64,000 bases of DNA from an uncultured virus (IMG/VR IMGVR_UViG_3300049846_002026) (Duplodnaviria > Heunggongvirae > Uroviricota > Caudoviricetes), in IMG/VR virus record IMGVR_UViG_3300049846_002026, one strand, 5' to 3'. A program made the position numbers and the translations under genes. The notes under the pieces are model-generated. The model searched no databases and was not told where the DNA came from. It worked only from the letters and a program-made list of their open reading frames with translations. Positions 4,339 to 50,862 of this stretch are shown here, piece after piece (position 1 is the first letter of the stretch; every line of letters starts with the position of its first letter).

Positions 4339-5358
4339 GTGGAAAAAGCCGAAATCGCCGCGTACGTCCGTACCATCCTGACGGAGAAGGCGCGCGACAT
4401 CTACCTGCGCAACCACGAGTTCGATTACTACGGCTGGGTGGCCAAGGCTGTGCCACCTGACCAACAGCACCTGCCGCATGTGGACCGGGGCCATTGGCTC
4501 GGTGCCACGCAGGAAGCTGAAGCACGGCAGTTGGTGGCCGATGCCGAAGACGCCATGGAGAAGGCCCGGGCCGAGCTGGCCGGCCTCAAGCCAGGCGATA
4601 CCACGTACGACGCAGCCAAAGCACTCGTGCAGTGGGCTGCGGACCAGGTCAAGGCCGCGCAGGACCACCTGGGCATCACCCTGGACACGATCCAGAAGGC
4701 CATCGAACGTCGTCGGCAGTTCCGTCTTGACAAGCTGGTGAGTAAGCTGTTCCTTCGCTACTATCACCGCGCCCGTCACATGGAATGGGAGCTGTTCGAC
4801 ACTCGCTTGCCCGCGCAACTCCGGAACTATCTGATGCTGCAGTTCCGTGGGCAGAAGCTGAGCCCCACCGCCATGGTGTTCCTGTGGCTGGTGGTCGAAG
4901 AGAACTTGGATCATGGTGGTGTGTTCCAAGTCAAGGGTCTCGGAGCAACGGACTACCTGGCCCAGCACGCCTTGGCCACATCGTCCCTGGATACGGATGC
5001 TCCGGAAGATCGGCCCACCCGGATGGAAGAAGACTACATCCGCGAACTCCAGCGCCCGGATGCGGTTCCGACCCACGAGAACCTCGATCCGCGCAGCACG
5101 GAGAATGATCACACGTACGATGGTCTCCCGTCCTTGGGTGCCTTGGACGGTAAGCTCGTCGACAAGCACACGTGTCCCACCTGCGGTACGCAGGTTCGCG
5201 ATCGTATCGTCAGCCTTCGTGGTCGGTACTACGGGATCGAGGGCTGCGACAACTACGCCACGAAGTGCCGGTACGAACCGATCACATCGGGCTTCACCAC
5301 CAGGAAGGCCGCCGTTGAGCACCTCGAAATACTCCATGCCCTCGAACGTGCCGGCTGA
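4339..5358 (+). CDS. hypothetical protein, possible C-terminal Zn ribbon
   Basis: 339-aa ORF in gene string; CPTC...C...C. Confidence 0.7.
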   Translation: MEKAEIAAYVRTILTEKARDIYLRNHEFDYYGWVAKAVPPDQQHLPHVDRGHWLGATQEAEARQLVADAEDAMEKARAELAGLKPGDTTYDAAKALVQWAADQVKAAQDHLGITLDTIQKAIERRRQFRLDKLVSKLFLRYYHRARHMEWELFDTRLPAQLRNYLMLQFRGQKLSPTAMVFLWLVVEENLDHGGVFQVKGLGATDYLAQHALATSSLDTDAPEDRPTRMEEDYIRELQRPDAVPTHENLDPRSTENDHTYDGLPSLGALDGKLVDKHTCPTCGTQVRDRIVSLRGRYYGIEGCDNYATKCRYEPITSGFTTRKAAVEHLEILHALERAG

Positions 5359-5650
5359 AGTGGCAGGGCTGCTTGCCGAGATGGAAACGGAGCTGAGCAT
5401 GCTTCGTGGCGTCATCCAAGGCATCGGCATGGAGCTGATGGACATGACGGGGAAGGATCAACGGCTCTTCCACCGGGGCCACCTGGTCTACTACGATATC
5501 GTTCGACAGAGCTACGTGGTGGACCACACCATCCCCATGACTTTCCAGGAGACTTGCGCATTCCTGGAGCTGTCGCCTGACAGTCGGGTTGCAACGCTGA
5601 TCACTCAGCTTCGGCCCATCGCGCCGCCAGCTCTCCAGCTGGTCAAATAG
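5336..5650 (+). CDS. hypothetical protein
   Basis: ORF overlapping upstream stop; start uncertain. Confidence 0.55.
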   Translation: MPSNVPAEVAGLLAEMETELSMLRGVIQGIGMELMDMTGKDQRLFHRGHLVYYDIVRQSYVVDHTIPMTFQETCAFLELSPDSRVATLITQLRPIAPPALQLVK

Positions 5651-5875: not shown

Positions 5876-5898
5876 ACTTGTTCGATGAGTTCGTCAGA

Positions 5899-6021
5899 GG
5901 GCTCTTTACCGCAATCCTCTTCCAAACCGATGGATCGTGGGTTCGAATCCCACCGGGCGTTAGGGTAGTTTGAAACGCACGTAGCCAAGTGGTACGGCAA
6001 TCGACTAGACAAGCGGAGCCC
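5899..6021 (+). ncRNA. Y RNA-like (YrlA-type) RNA with circularly permuted tRNA domain (motif copy 1)
   Basis: terminal helix GGGCTCT/GGAGCCC, TACCGCAA, T-arm GTGGG-TTCGAAT-CCCAC preceding closed acceptor and D-arm TAGCCAAGTGGTACGGC. Confidence 0.75.
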
Positions 6022-6047
6022 GGACGTTCTCATCTCTTTCACTCACC

Positions 6048-6997: not shown

Positions 6998-7005
6998 TCA
7001 ACGCA

Positions 7006-7060
7006 GGACTGCATACAGCAACCCTACTTGACTCTGAAAATCAAACCAACTGCAGTCCGT
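7006..7060 (+). ncRNA. ACAGCAA-motif RNA, copy 2
   Basis: GGACTGCA-TACAGCAA...TGCAGTCC-GT. Confidence 0.7.
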
Positions 7061-7072
7061 CCCGCTGTTCTA

Positions 7073-7137
7073 AGGTTACCGTCAGCAACAACGCCAAAGG
7101 GATGTACGGTGATGGGTCCGCAACCCTGGTAGCCTGT
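7073..7137 (+). ncRNA. ACAGCAA-motif RNA, copy 3
   Basis: AGGTTACC-GTCAGCAA...GGTAGCCT-GT. Confidence 0.65.
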
Positions 7138-7171
7138 TCCCAGCAGTTTCAATCCTTCTCTAGGAGTTTAC

Positions 7172-8587
7172 GTGCATCCGTTCGCGAAGGCAATGACCGT
7201 CCAGGCAGCGGTCACGGAGAACGGCATGGTCACCCATGCCGGCTCCGGACATCCGGTACTCGACTTCTTCTTCAAGATGGGTGGAGGTCGTGGCCAGCAG
7301 GACATGGTGTTGCAGGCGTTCCAGCAGGCGTACGCGTACGACAAGCTGCTCGCACTCAAGGCGCTGTTCCATCTGCGCGATGTGCGGGAAGGCATGGGCG
7401 AGCGCCAGCTGTTCCGCACCTGTTTCGCCTGGCTCGCGCAGTACGATCCGGCGATCGCAGCCCACAACCTCGACAACGTCCCGGAGTTCGGTCGGTACGA
7501 TGATCTCATGGCCACCACCGGCACGCCGATCGAAGCCCAGGCGCTGACCAAGTGGACGCAGGCCATCATCAAGGACGACGCCCTGGCGGCCAAGTGGGCG
7601 CCGCGCGAGGGTAAGGAGCACCACGAGTGGGCGCTCAAGCTGCGTCAGGCGCTTCGGATCAACTGGAAGAGCTACCGGCAGCTGCTCGTGTCGGCCAGCC
7701 AGACCGTCGAACAGATCATGTGCGCGGGGAACTGGACCGCCGTGAACTACAACCACGTGCCGAGCCAGGCTGCACTGCGTTACCGCAAGGCGTTCTTCAA
7801 GCGCGACAAGGACCGCTACCTGGAGTACATCAACTCCTTGGCGAGCGGCAAGACCAAGATCAACGCAGCGGCCGTGCACCCGCACGAGATCGCGGCACGC
7901 ATCGCCCTGTACAACCTCAACATCGGCGAAGCGGAGCTCTTGGAGGCGCAGTGGAAGGCGCTGCCCGACCTGGTCAAGAGCGGCGAGAGCTTCCTGCCAA
8001 TCGTGGATGTCAGCGGCTCGATGGCTGGCCAGCCGATGGAAGTGGCGATCGCCCTGGGCATCTACCTCAGCGAGCGTAATCGTGGGGAGTTCAAGAACCA
8101 GATCATCACGTTCAGCGAGCAGCCGCGCTTCTTCCAGCTGGCGGGCGGGCTGCGTGACAAGGTGCTCGCGCTGCGCAGCGCCCCCTGGGGGTACAACACG
8201 AACGTCCAGGCGGTGTTCGACCTGATCCTTCGGCAGGCCCAGATCCATAGCCTGAAGCCCGAAGACATGCCGAACAACCTCATCATCCTGAGCGACATGC
8301 AGTTCGACCAGGCCTGTCCGGACTACAGCCTGACGGCGATGGAGCTCATCCGCCAGAAGTACGCAGCGGTGGGCTATCAGGTTCCCACGATCGTGTTCTG
8401 GAACCTGCGGACCAGCCTGGGCGTGCCAGCCCAGTCCGACGAGTGCAACACACAGCTCGTGAGCGGATTCTCGCCCAACGCCATGAAGGCCGTCCTGGCC
8501 AAGCAGGAGCTGCCGGTGGTCACGCCCATCGACAGCATGCTGGCTGTCCTGCTCAGTCCGCGGTACGAGTCCGTGAGGGTCGAATGA
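7172..8587 (+). CDS. DUF2828 family protein (TROVE/Ro60-like helical domain + vWA)
   Basis: TENG, LRDVREGMGER, FGRYDDL, AAKWAPRE; vWA MIDAS DVSGSM, SDMQFD, FWNL, VSGFSP; AGGAG RBS. Confidence 0.85.
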   Translation: MHPFAKAMTVQAAVTENGMVTHAGSGHPVLDFFFKMGGGRGQQDMVLQAFQQAYAYDKLLALKALFHLRDVREGMGERQLFRTCFAWLAQYDPAIAAHNLDNVPEFGRYDDLMATTGTPIEAQALTKWTQAIIKDDALAAKWAPREGKEHHEWALKLRQALRINWKSYRQLLVSASQTVEQIMCAGNWTAVNYNHVPSQAALRYRKAFFKRDKDRYLEYINSLASGKTKINAAAVHPHEIAARIALYNLNIGEAELLEAQWKALPDLVKSGESFLPIVDVSGSMAGQPMEVAIALGIYLSERNRGEFKNQIITFSEQPRFFQLAGGLRDKVLALRSAPWGYNTNVQAVFDLILRQAQIHSLKPEDMPNNLIILSDMQFDQACPDYSLTAMELIRQKYAAVGYQVPTIVFWNLRTSLGVPAQSDECNTQLVSGFSPNAMKAVLAKQELPVVTPIDSMLAVLLSPRYESVRVE

Positions 8588-26682: not shown

Positions 26683-27328
26683 CCAAATGCGCGCATATCG
26701 CAGTCGAGACATCGTACAGGCTTTCCAGTGGCATAGTGGTGCACGTACCACCAAGCTGGACGAGACTTTGCTGGTGACTCCAGGGCACTTCAAGGAACCA
26801 GATCTCCGTGGCTGTGGCGTGGTACGTAATCCGCACAGCATCGGGGATGGCGCCATCGTACATCATGGAGACTGGGTGTGCGTACGCAATGTCACCTGGA
26901 CGGATGGTACGACCAGCAGAATCGTAACGGTTCTGGACGAAGATTCGTTCAAGGCCGGGTTCGAGCCAATCGATCAGGCAGTTCTGGAAGAACCACGAAT
27001 CGAACGGACGGTCACGGAGGACATGGTGGAACGGGCGGCGGTGGCGTACACGGGGGACAGTCCCAAGGCGTGGGCGGCGGCACCGGAGGGACAGCGCGAC
27101 ACGGTGCGCCGTCATGTTCGTCGCATCCTCAACGCGGCCAGCGACACCCCCGCGTCGGAGGTCACGGACAAGGTTGCGAAAGCCGCCGCGCAAGTGCAGA
27201 AGGCGATGGACCGGCTGCTGACGCACGGCCCGATCACGGTGCATCACGGCGGCGCACTCGCGGCCCAAATCCGCATCCTGACCGCCGCCCTCGGCTCCGC
27301 GACCCCCGACGCCGAGGGGGGACGATGA
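26657..27328 (+). CDS. hypothetical protein
   Basis: ORF in gene string. Confidence 0.6.
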   Translation: MIVTPTQRNQMRAYRSRDIVQAFQWHSGARTTKLDETLLVTPGHFKEPDLRGCGVVRNPHSIGDGAIVHHGDWVCVRNVTWTDGTTSRIVTVLDEDSFKAGFEPIDQAVLEEPRIERTVTEDMVERAAVAYTGDSPKAWAAAPEGQRDTVRRHVRRILNAASDTPASEVTDKVAKAAAQVQKAMDRLLTHGPITVHHGGALAAQIRILTAALGSATPDAEGGR

Positions 27329-35847: not shown

Positions 35848-36118
35848 GGTAGGTTTGCGGTTTGGCCCCCTAGGGCACGACCTATTTGTTAAGAGCCGTC
35901 CCCTAGACTTTCCGGAGCTTCAATGCAATATTGCCTATCCCACAATCCTATCGCTACACAGCGCCCGACGTTCGATCGGTCGCTGGTGATTGGGAACTGG
36001 GAAAGCAAGGCAGGTAGTCGGTCCGGGGGAGCACTGATTTAGGGGTACACCACACGTACACGCCCTGAACGACGCGCCCCACGCTTCCCGGACCTAGGAA
36101 GAGTGGGGTTTCCGTTTT
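35848..36118 (+). ncRNA. long rod-like structured RNA candidate ending in terminator
   Basis: seven nested helices with internal bubbles; hairpin CCCCAC..GTGGGG + TTTCCGTTTT. Confidence 0.6.
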
Positions 36119-36128
36119 GGAGGATACC

Positions 36129-36674
36129 ATGAGCTGTCTCGTACTGAACGCCACATACCAGCCGATGCGCCCCATCGGCACTAAACGCGCCATCCGGCTT
36201 GTACTCCAGGGAAAGGCGGACATCGTCGAAAGCTCATCGGAACAGACGTTCCGGTCGGCCAACACGGAGATCCCCACCCCACTGGTCATCCGGCTGCGCA
36301 AGACCGTCAAGGTCCCGGACCGTTTCCGGCAGAGCGTAACCAACACGTTCCTGTTCGCTCGCGACGGCTACACCTGTCAGTACTGCGGACGGCACGATCG
36401 GGACTTGAAGGAGAGGGAGGGGCTGACCCGTGATCACGTTCAGCCGGTAAGTCGCGGGGGTGGGAACGTCTGGACTAACGTCGTAACGGCCTGCTCGACC
36501 TGCAACATGAAGAAGGCCGACCGCACACCCGAGGAAGCAGGACTCGTGCTCCGCAAGGTTCCAAAGGAGCCGAAGTTCGTGAACCTCAGGTGGCAGATCA
36601 GGAAGCTCACTCCGATTCAGCTGAAGTACGTCAAGATGTTCTACGGCGAGGAGTGGCTGGAGAGTGTAGAGTAA
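36129..36674 (+). CDS. HNH endonuclease with PLMP-like N-terminus (IshB-like architecture)
   Basis: LVLNATYQPMRP..KRAIRLVLQGKA; RDGYTCQYC, TRDHVQP.SRGG, NVVTACSTCN. Confidence 0.9.
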   Translation: MSCLVLNATYQPMRPIGTKRAIRLVLQGKADIVESSSEQTFRSANTEIPTPLVIRLRKTVKVPDRFRQSVTNTFLFARDGYTCQYCGRHDRDLKEREGLTRDHVQPVSRGGGNVWTNVVTACSTCNMKKADRTPEEAGLVLRKVPKEPKFVNLRWQIRKLTPIQLKYVKMFYGEEWLESVE

Positions 36675-38574: not shown

Positions 38575-38650
38575 GGGGTGGTAGCTCAGCGTTAGAGTCC
38601 GGTCATAGACGATCGGGGGTCGGAGGGTTCGAGTCCTTCCCCACCCACCA
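38575..38650 (+). tRNA. non-canonical tRNA-like gene, anticodon undetermined
   Basis: TAGCTC D-arm, GGTTCGAGTCC T-arm, encoded CCA; anticodon arm CCGGTC-ATAGAC-GATCGG. Confidence 0.65.
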
Positions 38651-38709
38651 AAAGGGCGGCTTGAAAGTACACGACCTGCGTGTACGCCTCGCAAGAGGTA
38701 GCCGGTGCG

Positions 38710-38781
38710 GGGCCCTAAGCATACGTGGCGATGCAGGAGACTCTTAATCTTCAGAACTCGGTTCGATTCCGTGAGGGCTCA
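38710..38781 (+). tRNA. tRNA-Lys(CTT)
   Basis: GGAGA-CT CTT AA-TCTTC. Confidence 0.85.
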
Positions 38782-38782
38782 T

Positions 38783-39214
38783 ATGAAATCGTGCAGTACC
38801 TGCCATAAATCCAAACCGTACACGGATTTTTACAAGAACGCACGGAGTACGGACGGTCTAGGTAATCGCTGCAAACGCTGTATGCAGGCCTATGGCAAAC
38901 TGTGGTATAAGCGTAACGCCGCCGCGCATAAAGCAGCCACACACAAAGGCAAGCAGATACAGCGAGAGGTAGTTCGTATGTGGCTTTTGTGGTACTTGCT
39001 AGAACACCCCTGCGTTGACTGTAGTGAAGCGGATCCTGTGGTGTTGGATTTTGATCATGTTCGCGGCCGCAAGACCTACAACATCGCTGCACTAGCGCAA
39101 CAAGGAGCATCGTTGTCTCGTGTAGTAGCGGAGATTATGAAATGTGACGTTCGCTGTGCGAACTGCCACCGCCGTGCAACCGCTAGTCGACGCGGGACCG
39201 ATAGAAAGCTGTAA
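38783..39214 (+). CDS. HNH endonuclease
   Basis: CSTC, CKRC, CVDC...LDFDHV...CDVRCANCHR. Confidence 0.85.
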   Translation: MKSCSTCHKSKPYTDFYKNARSTDGLGNRCKRCMQAYGKLWYKRNAAAHKAATHKGKQIQREVVRMWLLWYLLEHPCVDCSEADPVVLDFDHVRGRKTYNIAALAQQGASLSRVVAEIMKCDVRCANCHRRATASRRGTDRKL

Positions 39215-39835: not shown

Positions 39836-39909
39836 TGCCCTCTAGCTCAATCTGGCAGAGCGCCTGACTCTGGATCAGGAGGTTGGTGGTTCGATCCCAC
39901 CGAGGGCAA
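39836..39909 (+). tRNA. tRNA-Gln(CTG)
   Basis: CCTGA-CT CTG GA-TCAGG. Confidence 0.93.
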
Positions 39910-39910
39910 T

Positions 39911-40171
39911 ATGACAACGAAAACATGGGTCATGCCGACAGAAGGATACGTACGGCATCTCTACGTACTTGAAGCAAACGGCTTGGTGCTTGCGGAACTC
40001 CATCCGGCGCCGAACAGCATCATGGCGTACGGCGGCGACACGAATGAGCAAATCGTGTGGTCTGTGGAGTGGCCTCTCGGCGGCAAGCTCTGCGATGTGT
40101 ACGGCCTCAGCAACGCCAAGCGGTACGTTGAAGAGTACTACGCGCGCAATCAGGAACATACGGGTCTGTAG
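39911..40171 (+). CDS. hypothetical protein
   Basis: ORF from tRNA 3' end into next tRNA. Confidence 0.6.
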   Translation: MTTKTWVMPTEGYVRHLYVLEANGLVLAELHPAPNSIMAYGGDTNEQIVWSVEWPLGGKLCDVYGLSNAKRYVEEYYARNQEHTGL

Positions 40172-40234
40172 CTCATTTGGGAGAGCGCTGCAATCGCACT
40201 GCAGAGGTGGTGGGTTCGAATCCCATCAGATCCA
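40162..40234 (+). tRNA. tRNA-Ala(CGC)
   Basis: CTGCA-AT CGC AC-TGCAG. Confidence 0.93.
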
Positions 40235-40237
40235 TAG

Positions 40238-40313
40238 GCTCATTGGGCAGGCGTGGTCGCATTTGCACTGGTCTGAAAAGCCAGACAGCTCGGTTCGATT
40301 CCGAGAGTGAGCA
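40238..40313 (+). tRNA. tRNA-Phe(GAA)
   Basis: CTGGT-CT GAA AA-GCCAG; atypical D-arm. Confidence 0.85.
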
Positions 40314-40342
40314 TTGTACAACTAACCAAGGGGTGTACCAGC

Positions 40343-40600
40343 ATGATGCGGGCTAAGTTCGTTGTGGTGAAGGTAGCGAAGTGTGTCGGCTACAACGGCG
40401 AGCCGATCGGCTCTGTTGAGCTGACGCTCCAAGCGGTTAGTGATGCGCATAACGGCCCGAACGGCGAGCGCGAGGACAGTACCTTCGCACTCTACACACC
40501 GTTCGCCAATCTCAACATGACGATCACGAACCCGGTGTTCTTCGACACGTTCAAGCCTGGAATGAAGTTGTACGCAGACTTCACCGAGGCAGCAAAGTAA
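40343..40600 (+). CDS. conserved phage protein
   Basis: MRAKF...F..YTP..NL.MTITNP...F.PG..YADFT pattern. Confidence 0.7.
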   Translation: MMRAKFVVVKVAKCVGYNGEPIGSVELTLQAVSDAHNGPNGEREDSTFALYTPFANLNMTITNPVFFDTFKPGMKLYADFTEAAK

Positions 40601-40719
40601 GACTTCGCACAGCAATCCAACTTCGACTACGGATCGAGAGATACAGGTTCAAATCCTGTCGACGAAGCTCAGCTTCGTTGTGGTGCAACTGGGTAGCACG
40701 CTATCAAAACGAAGTCTGT
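40600..40719 (+). ncRNA. Y RNA-like (YrlA-type) RNA with circularly permuted tRNA domain (motif copy 5)
   Basis: AGACTTCG-CACAGCAA; ACG anticodon-like hairpin; T-arm; acceptor closed by TCA loop; D-arm; CGAAGTCT-GT. Confidence 0.8.
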
Positions 40720-40724
40720 TTGGC

Positions 40725-40797
<73 letters not shown>

Positions 40798-40799
40798 TA

Positions 40800-40854
40800 A
40801 GATTGCGCACAGCAAAAACCCTGACTTGCACTCAGAGCAAAAACCGCAGTCTGT
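40800..40854 (+). ncRNA. ACAGCAA-motif RNA, copy 6
   Basis: AGATTGCG-CACAGCAA...CTGA-CTTGCAC-TCAG...CGCAGTCT-GT. Confidence 0.7.
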
Positions 40855-40859
40855 TCTAT

Positions 40860-40933
40860 AGGTCGGACGCTCACCGGGCGAGCAGCGGTCTCCAAAACCG
40901 CCATCTAGACGGGTTCGATTCCCTCCCGGCCTG
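40860..40933 (+). tRNA. tRNA-Trp(CCA)
   Basis: GCGGT-CT CCA AA-ACCGC. Confidence 0.85.
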
Positions 40934-40959
40934 TTGCACTTCAACCCAGGGGTACACAC

Positions 40960-41310
40960 GTGGCACAGTTCTCAGAGATCATTCGGCACGCTAACCCGCC
41001 TCGTTTGGAGATCTTCGACCAGGAGATCGTGTGGGTACCGTCACGGATGGAGTTTCACTCGCGGTTCAAGGATGAACCGGCATGGGTCGTGATGGACCTT
41101 GACGACTGGATCCATGTGTGGTACCTTCAGGACCCGGTCGTGTACAAGGAGACCCTGGAGTTTCTGGAAGCGCTTCGGTGGCTGCAGAAGCGGACTACCG
41201 AGTTGCTGAGTCCGGAACAGGCCGATGCCATGCGGACGATCTTCGGTGACGCGGAAGTTGAAGTGAGCCAGATCCGCCTGGCCCCACTTGTTGGTCCGGA
41301 CGAGGACTAA
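40960..41310 (+). CDS. hypothetical protein
   Basis: AGGGG RBS, GTG start. Confidence 0.6.
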   Translation: MAQFSEIIRHANPPRLEIFDQEIVWVPSRMEFHSRFKDEPAWVVMDLDDWIHVWYLQDPVVYKETLEFLEALRWLQKRTTELLSPEQADAMRTIFGDAEVEVSQIRLAPLVGPDED

Positions 41311-41428
41311 GCCATGTGGCATGAGATCGTACAGATTGTCCAGCCGTTTGTGATCATCATCGTGGTACTGGCCCTCATGGGCGTAGTCGCCAAGGTGTTC
41401 GACTGGGCAACGAAGCTGTAGAAGGACC

Positions 41429-41500
41429 GCCTCCGTAGCTGAGTGGCAAAGCACCTCCTTGGTAAGGAGGCGATCACCAGTTCGATTCTGGTCGGGGGCT
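41429..41500 (+). tRNA. tRNA-Thr(GGT)
   Basis: CCTCC-TT GGT AA-GGAGG. Confidence 0.93.
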
Positions 41501-44425: not shown

Positions 44426-44431
44426 TACCTT

Positions 44432-44505
44432 ACCCTCGTAGCTCAACTGGATAGAGCATCTGACTACGGATCAGAAGGTTGGGGGTTCGAATCCCTCCGA
44501 GGGTG
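44432..44505 (+). tRNA. tRNA-Arg(ACG)
   Basis: TCTGA-CT ACG GA-TCAGA. Confidence 0.94.
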
Positions 44506-44819
44506 TGCTCACCATCTACCACAGGAATCAAACCGTGTACACTGAACTGCCGGACTACAACGCAACACCGGAAACCGCCACCATCGACTTCGTCGTGAGC
44601 TGTGCACAGATGGCGGAAGAGTTCGCGAACGACCTGGAGTTCCTCGAAGAGCAGCTGAGCGACGAAGGCACGTTCATGCTGTTCAACTTCCCTAGCGCCG
44701 GTGAACAGCCGTCGGACGAAGCTGTGGCAGAGCGCTACGAAGAGGTGCTGGAGCTCTGGGTGGACTGCGGCGGAGCGCTGGACACCGTAGGTAGTCTCAT
44801 GGCTTCGGCGCTCGCCTAA
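44505..44819 (+). CDS. hypothetical acidic protein
   Basis: ORF between tRNAs; start uncertain. Confidence 0.55.
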   Translation: MLTIYHRNQTVYTELPDYNATPETATIDFVVSCAQMAEEFANDLEFLEEQLSDEGTFMLFNFPSAGEQPSDEAVAERYEEVLELWVDCGGALDTVGSLMASALA

Positions 44820-44933: not shown

Positions 44934-45959
44934 ATGAGCAAGAAGGAGAAGGAGCCGGGCACACCGAAGTCCAAGGGCGCCGCACTAGAAGCGGCGATTG
45001 CCGACATCGAGAAGGCTTTCGGCAAGGGCACGGTGATGCGGAGCAACACGGTCATTGAAGTTCCCGTCATCCCGACCGGTGCGCTCAATCTTGATGTTGC
45101 ACTAGGCGCTGGTGGCATTCCGAAGGGCCGTATCACTGAGGTGTTCGGCCCTGAGTCATCTGGGAAGACCACCATCTGCTTGCACCTGATCGCGAACGTG
45201 CAGAAGGAAGGCGGTGTGGCGGCGATCATTGATGCCGAGCATGCCCTCGACCTGGGCTACGCCGAGAAGCTGGGCGTCAACATCGACCAGCTGCTGGTTA
45301 GCCAGCCGGAATGCGGTGAAGAGGCGCTCAGCGTGGCAGAGAAGCTGATTCAGAGCGGTGCGGTGGACATTGTGGTCGTCGACTCGGTCGCGGCTTTGGT
45401 TCCCCGGGCTGAGCTGGAAGGCGAGATGGGCGCGGCGCACATGGGTCTGCAGGCTCGCATGATGGGTCAGGCTCTGCGCAAGCTGACCGGCATGGTCAGT
45501 CGCACCAACTGCGCGTTGGTGTTTGTGAACCAGCTGCGCGAAAAGGTCGGCGTGATCTTCGGTAGCCCCGAAGTGACTCCTGGGGGCAAGGCGCTCAAGT
45601 TCTACGCCTCGGTTCGTCTCGACGTCCGGGGTAAGAAGCTCAAGGAAGATGACGAGGCGGTGGGCGTCAAGGTCACCGTCAAGGTGGTGAAGAACAAGGT
45701 CGGTCCGCCGTTCAAGCAGGCGGAGTTCGACATGCTCTACGGCACTGGCATCGACACCGCGGGCATTCTGCTGAACGCCGCGGTAGACATGGACATCATC
45801 ACCAAGTCCGGCTCGTGGTATCAGCACAACGGCAAGAACATCGGCCAGGGGTCTGACAACGCCAAGGCCTATCTGCTGGAGAACCCGCAGCTGATGGAAG
45901 ACATCGAGAACCAGTACTGGGCCAATCACTACGAGGCCCCGCTGGCGGAGATCGAATGA
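44934..45959 (+). CDS. recA: RecA recombinase
   Basis: [53 protein letters not shown]. Confidence 0.98.
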
Positions 45960-47716: not shown

Positions 47717-47944
47717 ATGACTCCGATCTTGCCTGACAACTTCTGGAAGAAGCGCGAACGGTGCTGGGCCTGCAAGCGGGTAGTCAGCTTGGCGGCGTGG
47801 CGGCGTGGCGAAGTGGAAGAGCTGGACATCAGTACCGCTGCGCACGACGAGCCCTATGTGGTGGTAGTGCACAGGGTAGACGGGTGCGAAAGCAAGACCC
47901 TCAAACAGATCAGGGCAGAACTTGCGGCCCAGGAGACGGTGTGA
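47717..47944 (+). CDS. hypothetical protein
   Basis: ATG right after tRNA; GTGA coupling to next gene. Confidence 0.55.
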   Translation: MTPILPDNFWKKRERCWACKRVVSLAAWRRGEVEELDISTAAHDEPYVVVVHRVDGCESKTLKQIRAELAAQETV

Positions 47945-48975
47945 CATTCAGCTTTAGCAAGCTTCTGCATCGGGTCACCGCGGCTCACCCAGCGGACACG
48001 CTGGACCTCGAACTATCAAGTGGTCTGGCAAAGGCAGGCGCCAGCGTCCACTTCGCGCCACTGGACGCCATGGTGGGCGTACGGTCTGGTGACGACAAGA
48101 GCACGATCGTGCTGACGGCGCACCGCGATCAGATCGGCTTCCGCATTTCGCAGTACGACGAGAACGGCTTTGCCTTGTTCGTGCCGGTTGGTGGTTGGGA
48201 TCCGCAGATTCTCGTAGGTCAGCCGGTGGTGGTTGGACGGCACTATCAGCCTGGTGTGATCGGGCGCAAGGCCATCCACCTGCTCAAGGACGGCGACGAG
48301 AAGCAGGTCGTGAAGCTGGAGAACATGTGGATCGACTTCGGCTTCAAGTCGGCGGAAGAGGGCAAGCAGAAGCTGCCGATCGGGAGCTTCGGTGTGGTCG
48401 ACCGCGGACCTAGCACCCTGGCCAACGATCGGTTCAGCTCGCGCGCCCTGGACGACCTGGCCGGCTGTGTGGTCGCGATCGAAGCCATGGGACGGTGCAC
48501 GGTAACGCCAAACGCACCCACCCTGGTCACGGTGCTGACCAAGCACGAAGAGACCATTTGGCTGGGTGTGAGCGGCAACTACGTGGCGGAGGTCGTGCGG
48601 CCGATGTGCATCATCGCGCTCGACGTCACGTTCGCTGAGGACCCGGACACCGTCGCGAAGGACAACAACGGCGTAAAGCTGGGTGGCGGTCCCGTGATCT
48701 ACCACGGTGGTATGTTGGACGAGCAGCTGACCCAGCGGATCGTCGCTCTGGCGCAAGAGCGGAAGATCCCATACCAGGAAGCCGTGATCGGCGGACACAG
48801 CAGCACCGACGCGGACGGCATGGCCCTGGGCGGCACTGGACAGCGGACCCTGCTCATCAGCATTCCCCTCCGCTACATGCACTCTCCGGTCGAGCTGGTG
48901 GACTTGCAGGACTTGGAGCACACGATCCAACTGCTCCAGGCAATCCACGAAACAGCCGCAAAGCGGGACCTGTAG
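47941..48975 (+). CDS. M42 family metallo-aminopeptidase
   Basis: AHRDQIGF, VGGWD, MWIDFG, RALDDLAG, HEE, IALDVT, KLGGGP, PLRYMHSPVE. Confidence 0.9.
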   Translation: MTFSFSKLLHRVTAAHPADTLDLELSSGLAKAGASVHFAPLDAMVGVRSGDDKSTIVLTAHRDQIGFRISQYDENGFALFVPVGGWDPQILVGQPVVVGRHYQPGVIGRKAIHLLKDGDEKQVVKLENMWIDFGFKSAEEGKQKLPIGSFGVVDRGPSTLANDRFSSRALDDLAGCVVAIEAMGRCTVTPNAPTLVTVLTKHEETIWLGVSGNYVAEVVRPMCIIALDVTFAEDPDTVAKDNNGVKLGGGPVIYHGGMLDEQLTQRIVALAQERKIPYQEAVIGGHSSTDADGMALGGTGQRTLLISIPLRYMHSPVELVDLQDLEHTIQLLQAIHETAAKRDL

Positions 48976-50325: not shown

Positions 50326-50862
50326 GTGGCGCACGTGATGTTGGATCTGGAGACACTGGGGCGTAGCGCAGGCTGTGTGGTGCTGAGCATCGGCGCGGTG
50401 CGCTTCGACATGGAGAAGGGCCTGCAGGAAGAGTTCTATCGGGTGATCGATCTGGACACCAGCCTCGCGGCAGGCCTGAAGGTCGAGCCAGAGACCGTAG
50501 CGTGGTGGTTCCAGCAGGAGCCCGAGGCACGGAAGGTGCTGCTGGAGGCCATGAACGGCACAGCGTGTGGGCTTCGGACAGCTCTTCAGGACCTGCAGGA
50601 GTTTCTCAAGCCTGACGATCTGATCTGGGGCAACGGTGCCACCTTCGACAACGCGATTGTGGTGGCGGCGGCGGAAGCAGTCAACCTGCCGCGGCCGTGG
50701 AGCTACCGGAACGATCGGTGCTTCCGGACCCTGCGGTCGCTGTACCCCGATGTGAACTGGCCGCAGACGACAGGTATTCTGCACCATGCGCTGGACGACG
50801 CCAAGACGCAGGCCCAACTGGCCGTGAAGATCATGCTGGAACATCGGTATAACGTGGTGTAG
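50326..50862 (+). CDS. DEDDh 3'-5' exonuclease/exoribonuclease
   Basis: MLDLETLG, SIGAV, WGNGATFD, HHALDDA. Confidence 0.9.
   Translation: MAHVMLDLETLGRSAGCVVLSIGAVRFDMEKGLQEEFYRVIDLDTSLAAGLKVEPETVAWWFQQEPEARKVLLEAMNGTACGLRTALQDLQEFLKPDDLIWGNGATFDNAIVVAAAEAVNLPRPWSYRNDRCFRTLRSLYPDVNWPQTTGILHHALDDAKTQAQLAVKIMLEHRYNVV

Follow-up and report, generated by a model that had tools for sequence, protein, structure and literature searches.

A back-to-front tRNA-Arg(ACG)-like RNA in a phage tRNA array, a candidate YrlA-class partner of a DUF2828 Ro60-fold protein

A 64-kb stretch of phage DNA (hereafter the window) contains, at positions 40600-40717, an 8-bp terminal helix that encloses a circularly permuted tRNA. 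On comparative sequence grounds, we give a probability of about three in four to this element being a YrlA-class Y RNA and one RNA partner of the phage's DUF2828 Ro60-fold protein (7172-8587). The proposed binding site for that protein is ACAGCAAUCC, a sequence adjoining the helix.

RESULTS

Architecture of the element

The window comes from an uncultured freshwater phage, and the RNA gene is located within a cluster of tRNA genes. The permuted module runs in the order anticodon arm, 4-nt variable region, T arm, 9-bp acceptor sealed by UCA, U8-G9, D arm and G26. All the parts named in the original prediction, which had been made from the sequence alone, were found, none more than one base from where it placed them. 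Its description of ACAGCAA as a helix was wrong, since this is a conserved motif in a single-stranded stretch just 3′ of the helix 5′ strand. The features of the element and its 3′ neighbour are the following:

40600-40607, + strand: 5′ strand of the terminal helix, AGACTTCG (equivalent to AGACUUCG), paired with 40710-40717 in the MFE and centroid folds
40608-40615, + strand: motif CACAGCAA, from the window sequence
40608-40621, + strand: 5′ linker, single-stranded, carrying the motif ACAGCAAUCC at 40609-40618
40622-40638, + strand: anticodon-type arm with a 5-bp stem UUCGA/UCGAG (one G-U), 7-nt loop CUACGGA and anticodon ACG
40639-40642, + strand: 4-nt variable region AGAU, from the ARAGORN cloverleaf; its last U can Levitt-pair with A15
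40643-40659, + strand: T arm ACAGG UUCAAAU CCUGU, from a partial Rfam tRNA match (model positions 43-63, 15.5 bits) and covariation
40660-40668 / 40672-40680, + strand: closed 9-bp acceptor with a UCA loop; 7 bp are positions 1-7 / 66-72, plus 2 bp
40681-40682, + strand: U8-G9, from ARAGORN on the re-permuted sequence and covariation
40683-40699, + strand: D arm GUGC AACUGGGUA GCAC, on the same two grounds
40700, + strand: G26, on the same two grounds
40701-40709, + strand: 3′ linker CUAUCAAAA, where TROVE-linked homologues have G-CUAAAA in a flank comparison
40710-40717, + strand: 3′ strand of the terminal helix, CGAAGTCT (equivalent to CGAAGUCU), from the fold
through 40724, + strand: 7-nt tail GUUUGGC, abutting tRNA-Ala
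40725-40797, + strand: tRNA-Ala(GGC), called by ARAGORN and Rfam

The element's copy of the DUF2828-associated motif, CACAGCAAUCC, sits after the helix 5′ strand, and the string GACGAAG is also present, although within an acceptor strand. The CUGUU motif at the 3′ end is common to a paralogue (at 40845-40858) and to TROVE-linked elements when the flanks are compared. Outside annotated tRNA and tmRNA genes, + strand T arms were found in the window at 40643, 5937 and, weakly, 15277. A scan of 39900-41500 for promoters and terminators returned nothing on the + strand; the element's 3′ end would be set by the 5′ processing site of tRNA-Ala. The helix 5′ strand shares its first base, 40600, with the stop codon of an ORF (40307-40600), of which it is the last base.

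The re-permuted sequence is called as tRNA-Arg(ACG)

In the native order, ARAGORN called no tRNA at the element. When 40674-40700 was rejoined to 40622-40667, which closes the chain at 26/27, the same program returned a 73-nt tRNA-Arg(ACG); the prediction of a circularly permuted tRNA-Arg-like domain was thus borne out, and the rejoined sequence has the tRNA score whose absence had been named as grounds for abandoning it. In this re-permuted form U8, A14, A15/U48, G18 G19, G53-C61, T54, A58 and G26/A44, which we take to be the nucleotides of the tRNA tertiary contacts, are all intact. The linear tRNA-Arg(ACG) gene of the phage (44431-44506) has, as had been noticed, exactly the loop CTACGGA found in the element, the two sequences being 66% identical overall. 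A free 5′ end and a 3′ CCA on a 7-bp acceptor, as expected of a functional tRNA-Arg, were not found, and no CCA is encoded. Contigs from three additional runs, belonging to other studies, contain the element without change except for one low-depth difference in the D loop; this comparison speaks to presence only.

The 127-nt fold (-37.2 kcal/mol, z -2.06, with 5 of 200 shuffles equally good) gave a modest signal, and the CTTCG/CGAAG repeats permit alternative pairings in the element. Covariation was assessed separately. Among four sequences, 84 of 84 cells were paired and 15 of the 21 pairs were altered on both sides, including six of the seven acceptor pairs in the homologues. Eighteen sequences from outside the window gave 95.8% paired cells with 18 of 21 pairs altered on both sides; with the partners slid, this alignment gave 35-48% (a MAFFT alignment with flanks was structurally poor and was left out of the results). 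Compensatory changes in homologues, the lack of which was to have counted against the prediction, were therefore present in all four arms. The stem of the anticodon-type arm is among those that covary, and its sequence is also found in phages Tabio and CcrColossus.

A covariance model, R2, was trained on 18 elements from other phages only, with none from the window. Searched against the 64-kb window, it placed the element first of 25 matches (72.9 bits, E 6e-15; its training set includes three ACG look-alikes found with a pattern derived from the element), the best junction between adjoining tRNA genes reaching 49.1 bits. Because R2 ranks it first, the element resembles those of Ro60-linked phages more than the rest of the window does.

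A DUF2828 protein with a Ro60 fold is encoded in the same window

The candidate protein partner is encoded 32 kb away on the same strand:

7172-8587, + strand: DUF2828/DUF7788/vWA protein, candidate partner, from Pfam and an AlphaFold2 model

This was the only Ro60-fold gene among the scanned ORFs of the window, and Pfam assigns it to DUF2828, not TROVE. An AlphaFold2 model built with 45 sequences had a pLDDT of 82.9, and the top 13 matches in a Foldseek comparison of this model with the PDB were all Ro60; a single-sequence model (pLDDT 39) was unusable. Neither phmmer nor the 45-sequence profile found Ro60 among PDB sequences, so that only the comparison of folds gave it. An ESM Atlas search with the protein returned DUF2828 clusters only, and NCBIfam and PHROGs provided no name for it. 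By tblastn, DUF2828 proteins were found in 711 phage records, including Felix O1-like, Listeria, Staphylococcus, Campylobacter and mycobacterial phages.

The motif tracks the protein family and recurs in other Y-like RNAs of the phage

Further Y-like RNAs were recognised in the window:

40798-40858, + strand: small paralogous Y-like RNA, YrlB-like, with the same helix and CACAGCAA and no tRNA module
5884-6036, + strand: second tRNA-like Y RNA, with T arm, closed acceptor, D arm, long terminal stem and the motif CCGCAAUCC
7003-7145 (approximate), + strand: two candidate small Y-like RNAs, with ACAGCAAC at 7015 and UCAGCAAC at 7083

The 18 nt that end in the motif are identical at 16 positions between the element (40598-40615) and the paralogue (40798-40815). 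The paralogue's helix (40800-40807 / 40845-40852) keeps its pairing through a double change of U-A to G-C and a change of C-G to U-G. This small RNA is placed between tRNA-Ala and tRNA-Trp. The distance from the second tRNA-like RNA to the Ro-like gene downstream of it is 1.1 kb, within the 4 kb used for YrlA; its segment 5929-6005 scored 24.3 bits with the Rfam YrlA model (E 0.0039) and 41.4 bits with R2. The two small candidates are directly upstream of the Ro-like gene, and their fold z-score was not significant.

Beyond the window, the pattern [CT][AC]GCAA was found 26-36 nt before the T arm in six of seven DUF2828-linked elements (five of six when the element studied here is left out) and in none of 16 TROVE-linked ones. 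TROVE-linked RNAs carry GNCGAA-like motifs where those adjoining DUF2828 genes have the ACAGCAA type. At 44 DUF2828 loci of IMG/VR, 57 of 112 motif matches fell in a 1-kb zone around and just behind the end of the gene. The motif adjoins the DUF2828 gene in phages Rumpelstiltskin, BUCT-ZZ01 and phiM12; in wV8 it lies ∼0.9-1 kb downstream of it, within a tRNA array. A tRNA-like module was detected within 4 kb (E <= 1e-5) at only three of 80 DUF2828 loci of IMG/VR, which implies that most DUF2828 genes are accompanied by small motif RNAs alone, or by none that were detected. We propose that the DUF2828-associated ACAGCAA RNAs form a group, to which the element would belong by its motif. The literature search found no description of ACAGCAA RNAs; the supplementary phage YrlA tables of Chen et al. 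2014 may include elements of the CcrColossus type.

Relatives in other phages

A pattern derived from the element, including its ACG, matched 51 IMG/VR loci. Of the 13 that were checked with ARAGORN, most were ordinary adjoining tRNA genes and three shared the element's build. In all three of these viral contigs the look-alike adjoins a Ro60-type gene, in agreement with the predicted YrlA topology of T arm, closed acceptor and D arm: in G001 four elements lie just upstream of a weak TROVE match (18.4 bits); in G002 a DUF2828 gene is followed, after ∼400 nt, by one element of the same orientation; and in G003 one element precedes, by 368 nt and in the same orientation, a gene with a strong TROVE match (39.1 bits). 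Their Rfam YrlA scores (28.7, 38.1 and 24.3 bits) are all below the gathering threshold of 69.

Relatives were also obtained with a second covariance model, R1, which matched upstream of the Ro60 genes of CcrColossus (five matches), Tabio (three) and RHph_TM21B (six). Several of these elements have 5-bp/7-nt anticodon-type arms, two of them with the stem UUCGA/UCGAG. When re-permuted, eight of nine elements were called as tRNAs, compared with two of nine in native order. Ro60-linked relatives found without requiring ACG had GUU, CUG, GCU or UCC loops, or no such arm. The tRNA array of phage wV8, which also has a DUF2828 gene, contains an element resembling the one studied here (5398-5530 of locus L262), and Mycobacterium phage Rumpelstiltskin carries one of the same build (4480-4610 of locus L263). 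We set aside a special status of ACG within the class; the ACG cases had been selected by the search pattern, so they carry no information on the frequency of ACG.

Other searches returned little. With 40300-41000 as query, the tRNA-Ala next to the element was all that megablast and blastn matched in phage records. No relatives of the upstream ORF, of the M42 peptidase or of an exact 26-mer were found in IMG/VR; tblastn searches of phage records with the ORF and the peptidase yielded distant matches only, and RecA gave 80 loci at 48-58% identity, uninformative for close relatives. A strict T-loop-to-D-loop pattern matched no IMG/VR locus and 39 loci in JGI metagenome contigs, none with a sealed acceptor; these looked like ordinary adjoining tRNAs or chance matches.

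Comparison with YrlA and other known systems

As described in the YrlA literature (RF02553; PMC4201824; 10.1101/312249), YrlA and the element both have a terminal stem made from the 5′ and 3′ ends, followed by T arm, closed acceptor-like stem and D arm in that order, with conserved tRNA tertiary nucleotides. YrlA also has an optional ‘V’ stem-loop before the T arm, and associates with Ro60-type proteins, in phages among others; pseudouridine 55 and dihydrouridine are further marks of the class. The anticodon loop that the original prediction considered to be kept is indeed there, and its 5-bp/7-nt arm is the ‘V’ stem-loop of the YrlA papers. The Rfam YrlA model aligned to the element from end to end, weakly (19.9 bits, E 0.034 in a 140-nt search, against a gathering threshold of 69), and an Rfam search of the whole window gave no YrlA match at this position. 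The YrlA consensus contains CUAcg, which may be linked to tRNA-Arg positions 32-36; the model did not align them.

The element departs from published YrlA in three respects. First, it has a full anticodon arm, while published YrlA ‘lacks the anticodon loop’; this canonical arm is what leads ARAGORN to call the re-permuted RNA a tRNA. Second, its protein-binding motif is different: the YrlA motif GNCGAAN0-1G (Chen et al. 2014) is absent from the 5′ part, the ACAGCAA-type sequence taking its place, and the likely partner is a DUF2828 protein, that of YrlA being a Pfam TROVE protein. Third, it lies inside a tRNA array, 32 kb from the Ro-like gene; Chen et al. had required a distance of up to 4 kb on the same strand.

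Other Y RNAs share single features with the element. In Mycobacterium smegmatis, YrlA has a 7-bp acceptor core, as here (the stem of the element being 2 bp longer), and is co-processed with a small YrlB from one precursor, which recalls the small paralogue next door in the window (PMC4201824). The same source describes for Deinococcus radiodurans a precursor containing Yrn2, tRNA-Asp and Yrn1, resembling the position of the element amid tRNA genes; Yrn1 can be drawn with an anticodon-like arm, although with a 6-nt loop and a doubtful D arm, and its T/D arm order is unlike that of YrlA. Thermus phage phiLo has its own phiRo60 with Yrl1 and Yrl2 adjoining the gene, and a hijack of host PNPase has been proposed; these RNAs are stem-bulge-stem structures with a CGAA motif, and no tRNA-like module is mentioned in the passages searched (PMC12135203). 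In phage Bas63 a Ro60-like protein, gp130, is encoded directly upstream of tRNA genes and counters the Ppl defence; its authors guess that some of the ‘tRNA genes’ are Y RNAs, but identified no RNA (PMC11482910). The wV8 DUF2828 gene occupies the position corresponding to that of gp130, and the two may be homologous. Both phages are presumably of the genus Felixounavirus.

DISCUSSION

The reading we favour, that of a YrlA-class Y RNA serving the DUF2828 protein, suggests the following course. The element would be transcribed along with the + strand tRNA array, and its 3′ end made by an RNase P cut at the tRNA-Ala 5′ end, 7 nt downstream. Comparison with relatives supports the ends pairing as the 8-bp helix with the adjoining motif unpaired; motif and helix may then be bound by the Ro-like ring, as the match between motif type and protein family suggests. 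For the remainder we envisage the L shape of a tRNA, closed at the acceptor and equipped with a full anticodon arm of the tRNA-Arg(ACG) type; covariation supports the secondary structure, and the conserved tertiary-contact nucleotides suggest the L shape. By analogy with bacterial Ro60/Y RNA, the probable role of the tRNA-shaped module is not decoding but engaging a tRNA-binding factor, either to bring it in or to keep it occupied, or shielding the RNA from nucleases. By the same analogy the phage particle would probably serve RNA metabolism or counter-defence. The evidence supports the earlier interpretation of the element as a mimic and not a chargeable tRNA.

A more far-reaching version of this proposal, which we regard as tentative and on balance unlikely, is that phage Ro60-type particles carry complete back-to-front tRNAs, each with an arm (ACG, GUU, CUG, GCU) aimed at one tRNA species. 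The element would then be an arginine-specific adaptor. In one form of this idea, the ring would deliver or withhold something that recognises the anticodon arm of tRNA-Arg(ACG), for instance an anticodon nuclease of a defence system; in the other, RNase P would open the RNA, which would then be CCA-tailed and charged to give a Ro-tethered two-piece arginyl-tRNA. In both forms, the ACAGCAA RNAs would supply the RNA half so far missing for the DUF2828 Ro-like proteins, which are present in more than 700 sequenced phage records and may correspond to the Bas63 protein that counters the Ppl defence.

Among the rival explanations, a stand-alone decoy of tRNA-Arg(ACG), independent of the Ro-like protein, is the least improbable, though we think there is little chance of it. 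Such an uncharged RNA would titrate a host factor that recognises the arginine anticodon arm, for instance an anticodon nuclease, ArgRS or the A34 deaminase, and so protect the phage tRNA-Arg or disturb host translation. The exact match of the loop with that of the phage's linear tRNA-Arg(ACG) and the location in the tRNA array, away from the Ro locus, would fit; so would the retention of an ACG loop in four independent phage contigs, but these ACG cases came from a pattern that required it, and the relatives found otherwise have other loops or no arm. The DUF2828-type motif and the terminal helix would, moreover, be superfluous for a free decoy. Position 20 also argues against it, being G in the element (40693) and A in three of the four linear tRNA-Arg genes of the window. 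An A20 in the D loop is an identity element for ArgRS in E. coli.

Somewhat less probable still is a two-piece chargeable tRNA, in which the acceptor is opened by RNase P and its 3′ strand trimmed and furnished with CCA, while the halves, held together by the acceptor and terminal helices, act as an arginine acceptor with or without Ro. Since it contains an exact 7-bp acceptor core beside the T arm, the stem could be opened by RNase P, as in M. smegmatis, where a YrlA with a 7-bp stem was shown to be cleaved by this enzyme in vitro and in vivo and to bear CCA (PMC4201824). This precedent weakens one part of the original prediction: the acceptor is sealed as it held, but the conclusion that charging is excluded unless the stem is opened has become less firm. 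The look-alike in G002 encodes A73-CCA right after the 3′ acceptor strand, and position 20 is A in G001, in G002 and in one low-depth variant of the element (G>A, run X5). Against this, the helix of the element continues for 2 bp into a 3-nt loop, an extension that should shift or hinder RNase P cleavage; no CCA is encoded, the phage already has a normal tRNA-Arg(ACG), and the 8-bp helix with 23 nt of linker at 26/27 would probably clash with the ribosome.

We consider it very improbable that the element is a decaying, now functionless remnant of two adjoining tRNA-Arg genes (the 3′ part of the first and the 5′ part of the second). Within the array, tRNA genes often follow one another at a distance of only a few bases, the junctions between such genes reach 49 bits with R2, and a dimeric-tRNA origin has been suggested for YrlA (bioRxiv 10.1101/312249). 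Decay is at odds, however, with 21 of 21 base pairs and every tertiary-contact nucleotide being intact, with the duplication of the terminal helix and motif with compensatory change, and with the maintenance of relatives of the same build in unrelated phages; the 66% identity to the linear tRNA-Arg(ACG) means that it is not a recent copy. Finally, there is hardly any likelihood of a genuine permuted gene of the kind known from Cyanidioschyzon and green algae, whose transcript would pass through a circular intermediate to become an ordinary tRNA-Arg: the order of 3′ half, spacer and 5′ half, the initially closed acceptor and the terminal helix do resemble algal pre-tRNAs (bioRxiv 10.1101/312249), but those genes are sole genes that use a splicing endonuclease and a ligase to yield normal mature tRNAs, none of which applies here. 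The linear gene at 44431-44506 is present, the junction shows a plain 8-bp helix with no bulge-helix-bulge motif seen, the chain is interrupted at 26/27, where linkers of 14 and 9 nt are found, and such an endonuclease is, according to the same source, not reported in bacteria.

Y RNAs that mimic tRNA were already known; this element and its relatives show that in phages the mimic can be an entire rotated tRNA whose anticodon arm is species-specific. This suggests that the module is read by anticodon-aware factors, beyond those that recognise the elbow alone, and the existence of whole rotated tRNAs in phages argues for a dimeric-tRNA origin of YrlA. A distinct RNA motif, ACAGCAA, is now tied to the Ro60-fold DUF2828 proteins. 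A Ro60-like protein of a Felix O1-like phage has been reported to counter defence, its RNA partner having only been guessed at.

A permuted tRNA-Arg-like element in the tRNA array

The element, which lies in the tRNA array at 40600-40717 (+), contains all the parts listed in the original prediction:

40600-40607 / 40710-40717 (+): terminal helix, 8 bp
Inside the terminal helix, before the anticodon-type hairpin (+): 14-nt linker carrying CACAGCAA
40622-40638 (+): anticodon-type hairpin, 5 bp with a 7-nt loop, CUACGGA
Between this hairpin and the T arm (+): variable region, 4 nt
40643-40659 (+): T arm
40660-40680 (+): 9-bp stem capped by UCA
Then (+): UG, the D arm (40683-40699), G and a 9-nt linker

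In this native order, ARAGORN made no tRNA call. When 40674-40700 and 40622-40667 were rejoined by script, a 73-nt tRNA-Arg(ACG) with a normal cloverleaf was called, in agreement with the permuted tRNA-Arg-like domain proposed earlier. The permutation break falls between tRNA positions 26 and 27, and every nucleotide that makes a tertiary contact in tRNA is present in the re-permuted sequence. The element is not a fresh duplicate of the phage's linear tRNA-Arg(ACG), since the two are only 66% identical, mostly at universally conserved positions. Its 127-nt fold was modestly better than that of shuffled sequences (z = -2.06), with three copies of CTTCG and their complements permitting alternative pairings.

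The window derives from a large, hitherto unsequenced phage; no near relative was found among 50,697 phage records or among IMG/VR and JGI metagenome contigs. It was present in contigs from freshwater and freshwater-sediment runs, and the element itself was found in contigs of three runs from other studies with 0, 0 and 1 internal differences. ARAGORN and Rfam together gave 40 tRNA genes and one tmRNA gene, all on the + strand; further genes specify RecA, a class II ribonucleotide reductase and a 2221-aa tail-fibre-like protein. Protein genes associated with the array were as follows:

36117-36674 (+): HNH endonuclease gene, upstream edge of the array
38705-39214 (+): HNH endonuclease gene, within the array
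44934-45959 (+): RecA, further into the array
47761-48975 (+): M42 peptidase, further into the array
50326-50862 (+): Rv2179c-like 3'-5' exoribonuclease, further into the array

At 38576-38650 (+), 3 nt past tRNA-Ile, ARAGORN also reported a 'tRNA-???' whose anticodon call has two bases; it was not among the Rfam matches at gathering score.

Relatives of the element adjoin Ro60-type genes

Strict sequence patterns yielded no relatives. A looser one (ACG-type loop, T loop and D loop at the permuted spacing) matched 51 IMG/VR loci, three of which were singled out by acceptor complementarity. ARAGORN, run on 13 loci, identified ten as ordinary neighbouring tRNA genes, while the other three (viral contigs G001, G002 and G003) share the architecture of the element; in native order two of these gave no tRNA call and the third an odd 68-nt call. 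The stems of the three relatives and of the element differ throughout in sequence. The compensatory changes looked for in homologues were present in the four-sequence alignment, where 84/84 cells pair and 15 of the 21 pairs are changed on both sides (40-53% pairing in a slid-partner control). Two caveats are that the relatives had been chosen for a complementary acceptor and that the arms are of a kind kept by any tRNA-derived sequence.

Ro60-type genes adjoin all three relatives, on the same strand. In G002 the element follows a 471-aa DUF2828 ORF at a distance of ~400 nt. In G003 it precedes a 547-aa TROVE ORF (PF05731, 39.1 bits) by 368 nt, and a further tRNA-like element occupies part of the interval. 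G001 carries a tandem series:

L174 10467-12163 (-): four tandem permuted tRNA-like elements, directly upstream of a Ro60-like reading frame

Two of the four bear anticodon-type loops (ACG and GCU). The Ro60-like frame is split into adjacent ORFs of 309 and 248 aa, which could reflect a frameshift or an assembly error; their joint TROVE match is weak (18.4 bits, below the cut-off). The Rfam YrlA model scored the relatives' elements at 28.7, 38.1 and 24.3 bits and aligned the whole of the window element with a score of 19.9 bits (E 0.034 in a 140-nt search), all under the gathering score of 69.

With the G003 TROVE protein as query against phage records, Ro60 loci were taken from Caulobacter phage CcrColossus, Xanthomonas phage Tabio, Rhizobium phage RHph_TM21B and crAss001. 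Covariance model R1, of permuted tRNA-like elements, gave five, three and six matches upstream of the Ro60 gene in the first three, respectively, where Rfam YrlA reached up to 52.1 bits; crAss001 gave weak matches only, none above 18.5 bits. Arms of anticodon type, with 5 bp and a 7-nt loop, are present in several of the stronger matches, and the element's stem UUCGA/UCGAG recurs in Tabio and CcrColossus with the loop CUGUUAA. Re-permutation led ARAGORN to call eight of nine elements as tRNAs (four Arg, two Asn, one Gln and one with GCU); the figure for native order was two of nine. A 68-nt 'tRNA-Gln' annotated in GenBank upstream of the CcrColossus Ro60 gene (L258 1631-1698) overlaps a permuted element whose acceptor stem is interrupted by a 32-nt insert, and looks like a tRNA-finder artefact.

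In an alignment of 18 elements, none of them from the window, pairing reached 95.8% and both partners had changed in 18 of the 21 pairs, with the caveat that this alignment had been fitted to the model, which biases it towards the structure. Model R2, built from these 18, gave the element its highest score in the window, 72.9 bits; the best-scoring junction between neighbouring tRNA genes reached 49.1 bits. The YrlA topology originally suggested is supported: the same fold is conserved in relatives beside Ro60-type genes, and the element is a YrlA-class RNA, a kind already known.

A candidate Ro60-like partner

No Pfam TROVE protein was found among the 58 window ORFs scanned. The ORF at 7172-8587 (+) matches DUF2828, DUF7788 and vWA in Pfam; searches of PDB sequences by sequence and by profile gave no Ro60 link for it. 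When its AlphaFold2 model (45 homologues, pLDDT 82.9) was submitted to Foldseek, the 13 best matches were Ro60 structures, over the full length (E 6e-8 to 1.4e-5; query TM 0.37-0.62), so that a Ro60 fold is supported for the predicted structure. Homologues were detected by tblastn in 711 phage records; those of mycobacteriophages are annotated as 'Ro-like RNA binding protein'.

The ACAGCAA motif and DUF2828

The sequence [CT][AC]GCAA occurs 26-36 nt before the T arm in six of seven DUF2828-linked tRNA-like elements (the window element, another at 5.9 kb, two in G002, and those of loci L241 and L214, the last reading CAGCAAUCCAA as in the window element); the exception, L248, has CAGCAC. None of 16 TROVE-linked elements has it there; they carry GGUGGCGUAG, GUUGCGAA or GGUGCG types, near the published GNCGAAN0-1G. 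Judged from sequence, this distribution supports a motif type that follows the protein family (DUF2828 versus TROVE), and a link through ACAGCAA between the element and the DUF2828 protein.

In Mycobacterium phage Rumpelstiltskin, the 'Ro-like RNA binding protein' (DUF2828) gene is directly followed by three elements in tandem that carry the ACAGCAA motif (L263 4420-4700); the middle one, which scores 56.5 bits with R2, has a closed acceptor between a T arm and a D arm. The motif precedes the DUF2828 gene twice in Synechococcus phage BUCT-ZZ01, once in phiM12, and twice within 174 nt in the window. Among 44 IMG/VR DUF2828 loci with full flanks, 28 have a motif site near the gene; 57 of 112 + strand motif matches fall in the 1 kb spanning the gene's end, where sites are usually paired, 55-75 nt apart. 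IMG/VR DUF2828 genes (L176, L199, L210, L239 and others) often adjoin long same-strand tRNA arrays, usually with two [AT]CAGCAA sites after them at that same spacing. A tRNA-like module lies within 4 kb (E <= 1e-5) in 3 of 80 IMG/VR DUF2828 loci; the tRNA-shaped form is therefore a minority.

Escherichia phage wV8 has a DUF2828 gene followed by a tRNA array, with the following feature:

L262 5313-5530 (NC_012749.1 about 26717-26934): two RNAs of the ACAGCAA type, both unannotated, within the Felix O1-type tRNA array

The one resembling the window element lies between tRNA-Asp and tRNA-Lys (R2 50.9 bits). Its parts are a terminal helix, UUUACAGCAAAAC, an anticodon-type and a T arm, a closed acceptor of 7 bp, and a D arm. 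Both RNAs are overlapped by a hypothetical CDS that has been annotated on the other strand. A preprint (PMC11482910) reports that the Ppl defence system is countered by the Ro60-like gp130 of phage Bas63, which is encoded directly upstream of the tRNA genes; its authors guess that some 'tRNA genes' are Y RNAs.

Other Y-like RNA candidates in the window

5884-6036 (+): second tRNA-like Y RNA, matched by the Rfam YrlA model at 24.3 bits (E 0.0039); the Ro-like gene lies 1.1 kb downstream
7003-7145 (+): two small RNA candidates immediately 5' of the Ro-like gene, with motifs ACAGCAAC and UCAGCAAC and CUGUUC-type 3' ends
40798-40858 (+): paralogue, a 60-nt RNA candidate between tRNA-Ala and tRNA-Trp, with the element's terminal helix and CACAGCAA motif

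The RNA at 5884-6036 has a T arm, a D arm, a long imperfect terminal stem and an acceptor with a 14-nt loop; of the seven acceptor positions, six are paired and one is an A-G mismatch. A canonical anticodon arm is absent. The candidates at 7003-7145 have uncertain boundaries and folded no better than shuffled sequences. The paralogue, without a tRNA module, is identical to the element at 16 of 18 positions (40798-40815 versus 40598-40615), and a U-A to G-C double change preserves pairing in its helix. The element and its small paralogue have a parallel in Salmonella and M. smegmatis, where YrlA is paired with YrlB, and the order element, tRNA-Ala, paralogue resembles that of the D. radiodurans precursor Yrn2-tRNA-Yrn1 (PMC4201824).

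Class and proposed mechanism

Four differences set the element apart from published YrlA. While the latter 'lacks the anticodon loop', the element has a canonical 5-bp/7-nt arm (loop CUACGGA), the retained loop having been correctly predicted; its motif is of the DUF2828 type rather than GNCGAAN0-1G; it sits in a tRNA array, distant from the protein gene; and it scores below the Rfam YrlA threshold. The literature yielded no description of DUF2828-associated RNAs or of anticodon-bearing phage Y RNAs, although the supplements of Chen et al. 2014 may list some TROVE-linked phage elements.

The element would be co-transcribed with the tRNA array, no promoter-like or terminator-like site having been found on the + strand in 39900-41500, and RNase P acting at tRNA-Ala would form its 3' end. 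RNase P may also open the stem of the element, as it does that of M. smegmatis YrlA (PMC4201824). The Ro-like ring would bind the motif and helix. By analogy with the bacterial Ro60/Y RNA/PNPase and phiLo phage particles (PMC4201824; PMC12135203), the tRNA-shaped module may serve to contact a tRNA-binding factor or to protect against nucleases.
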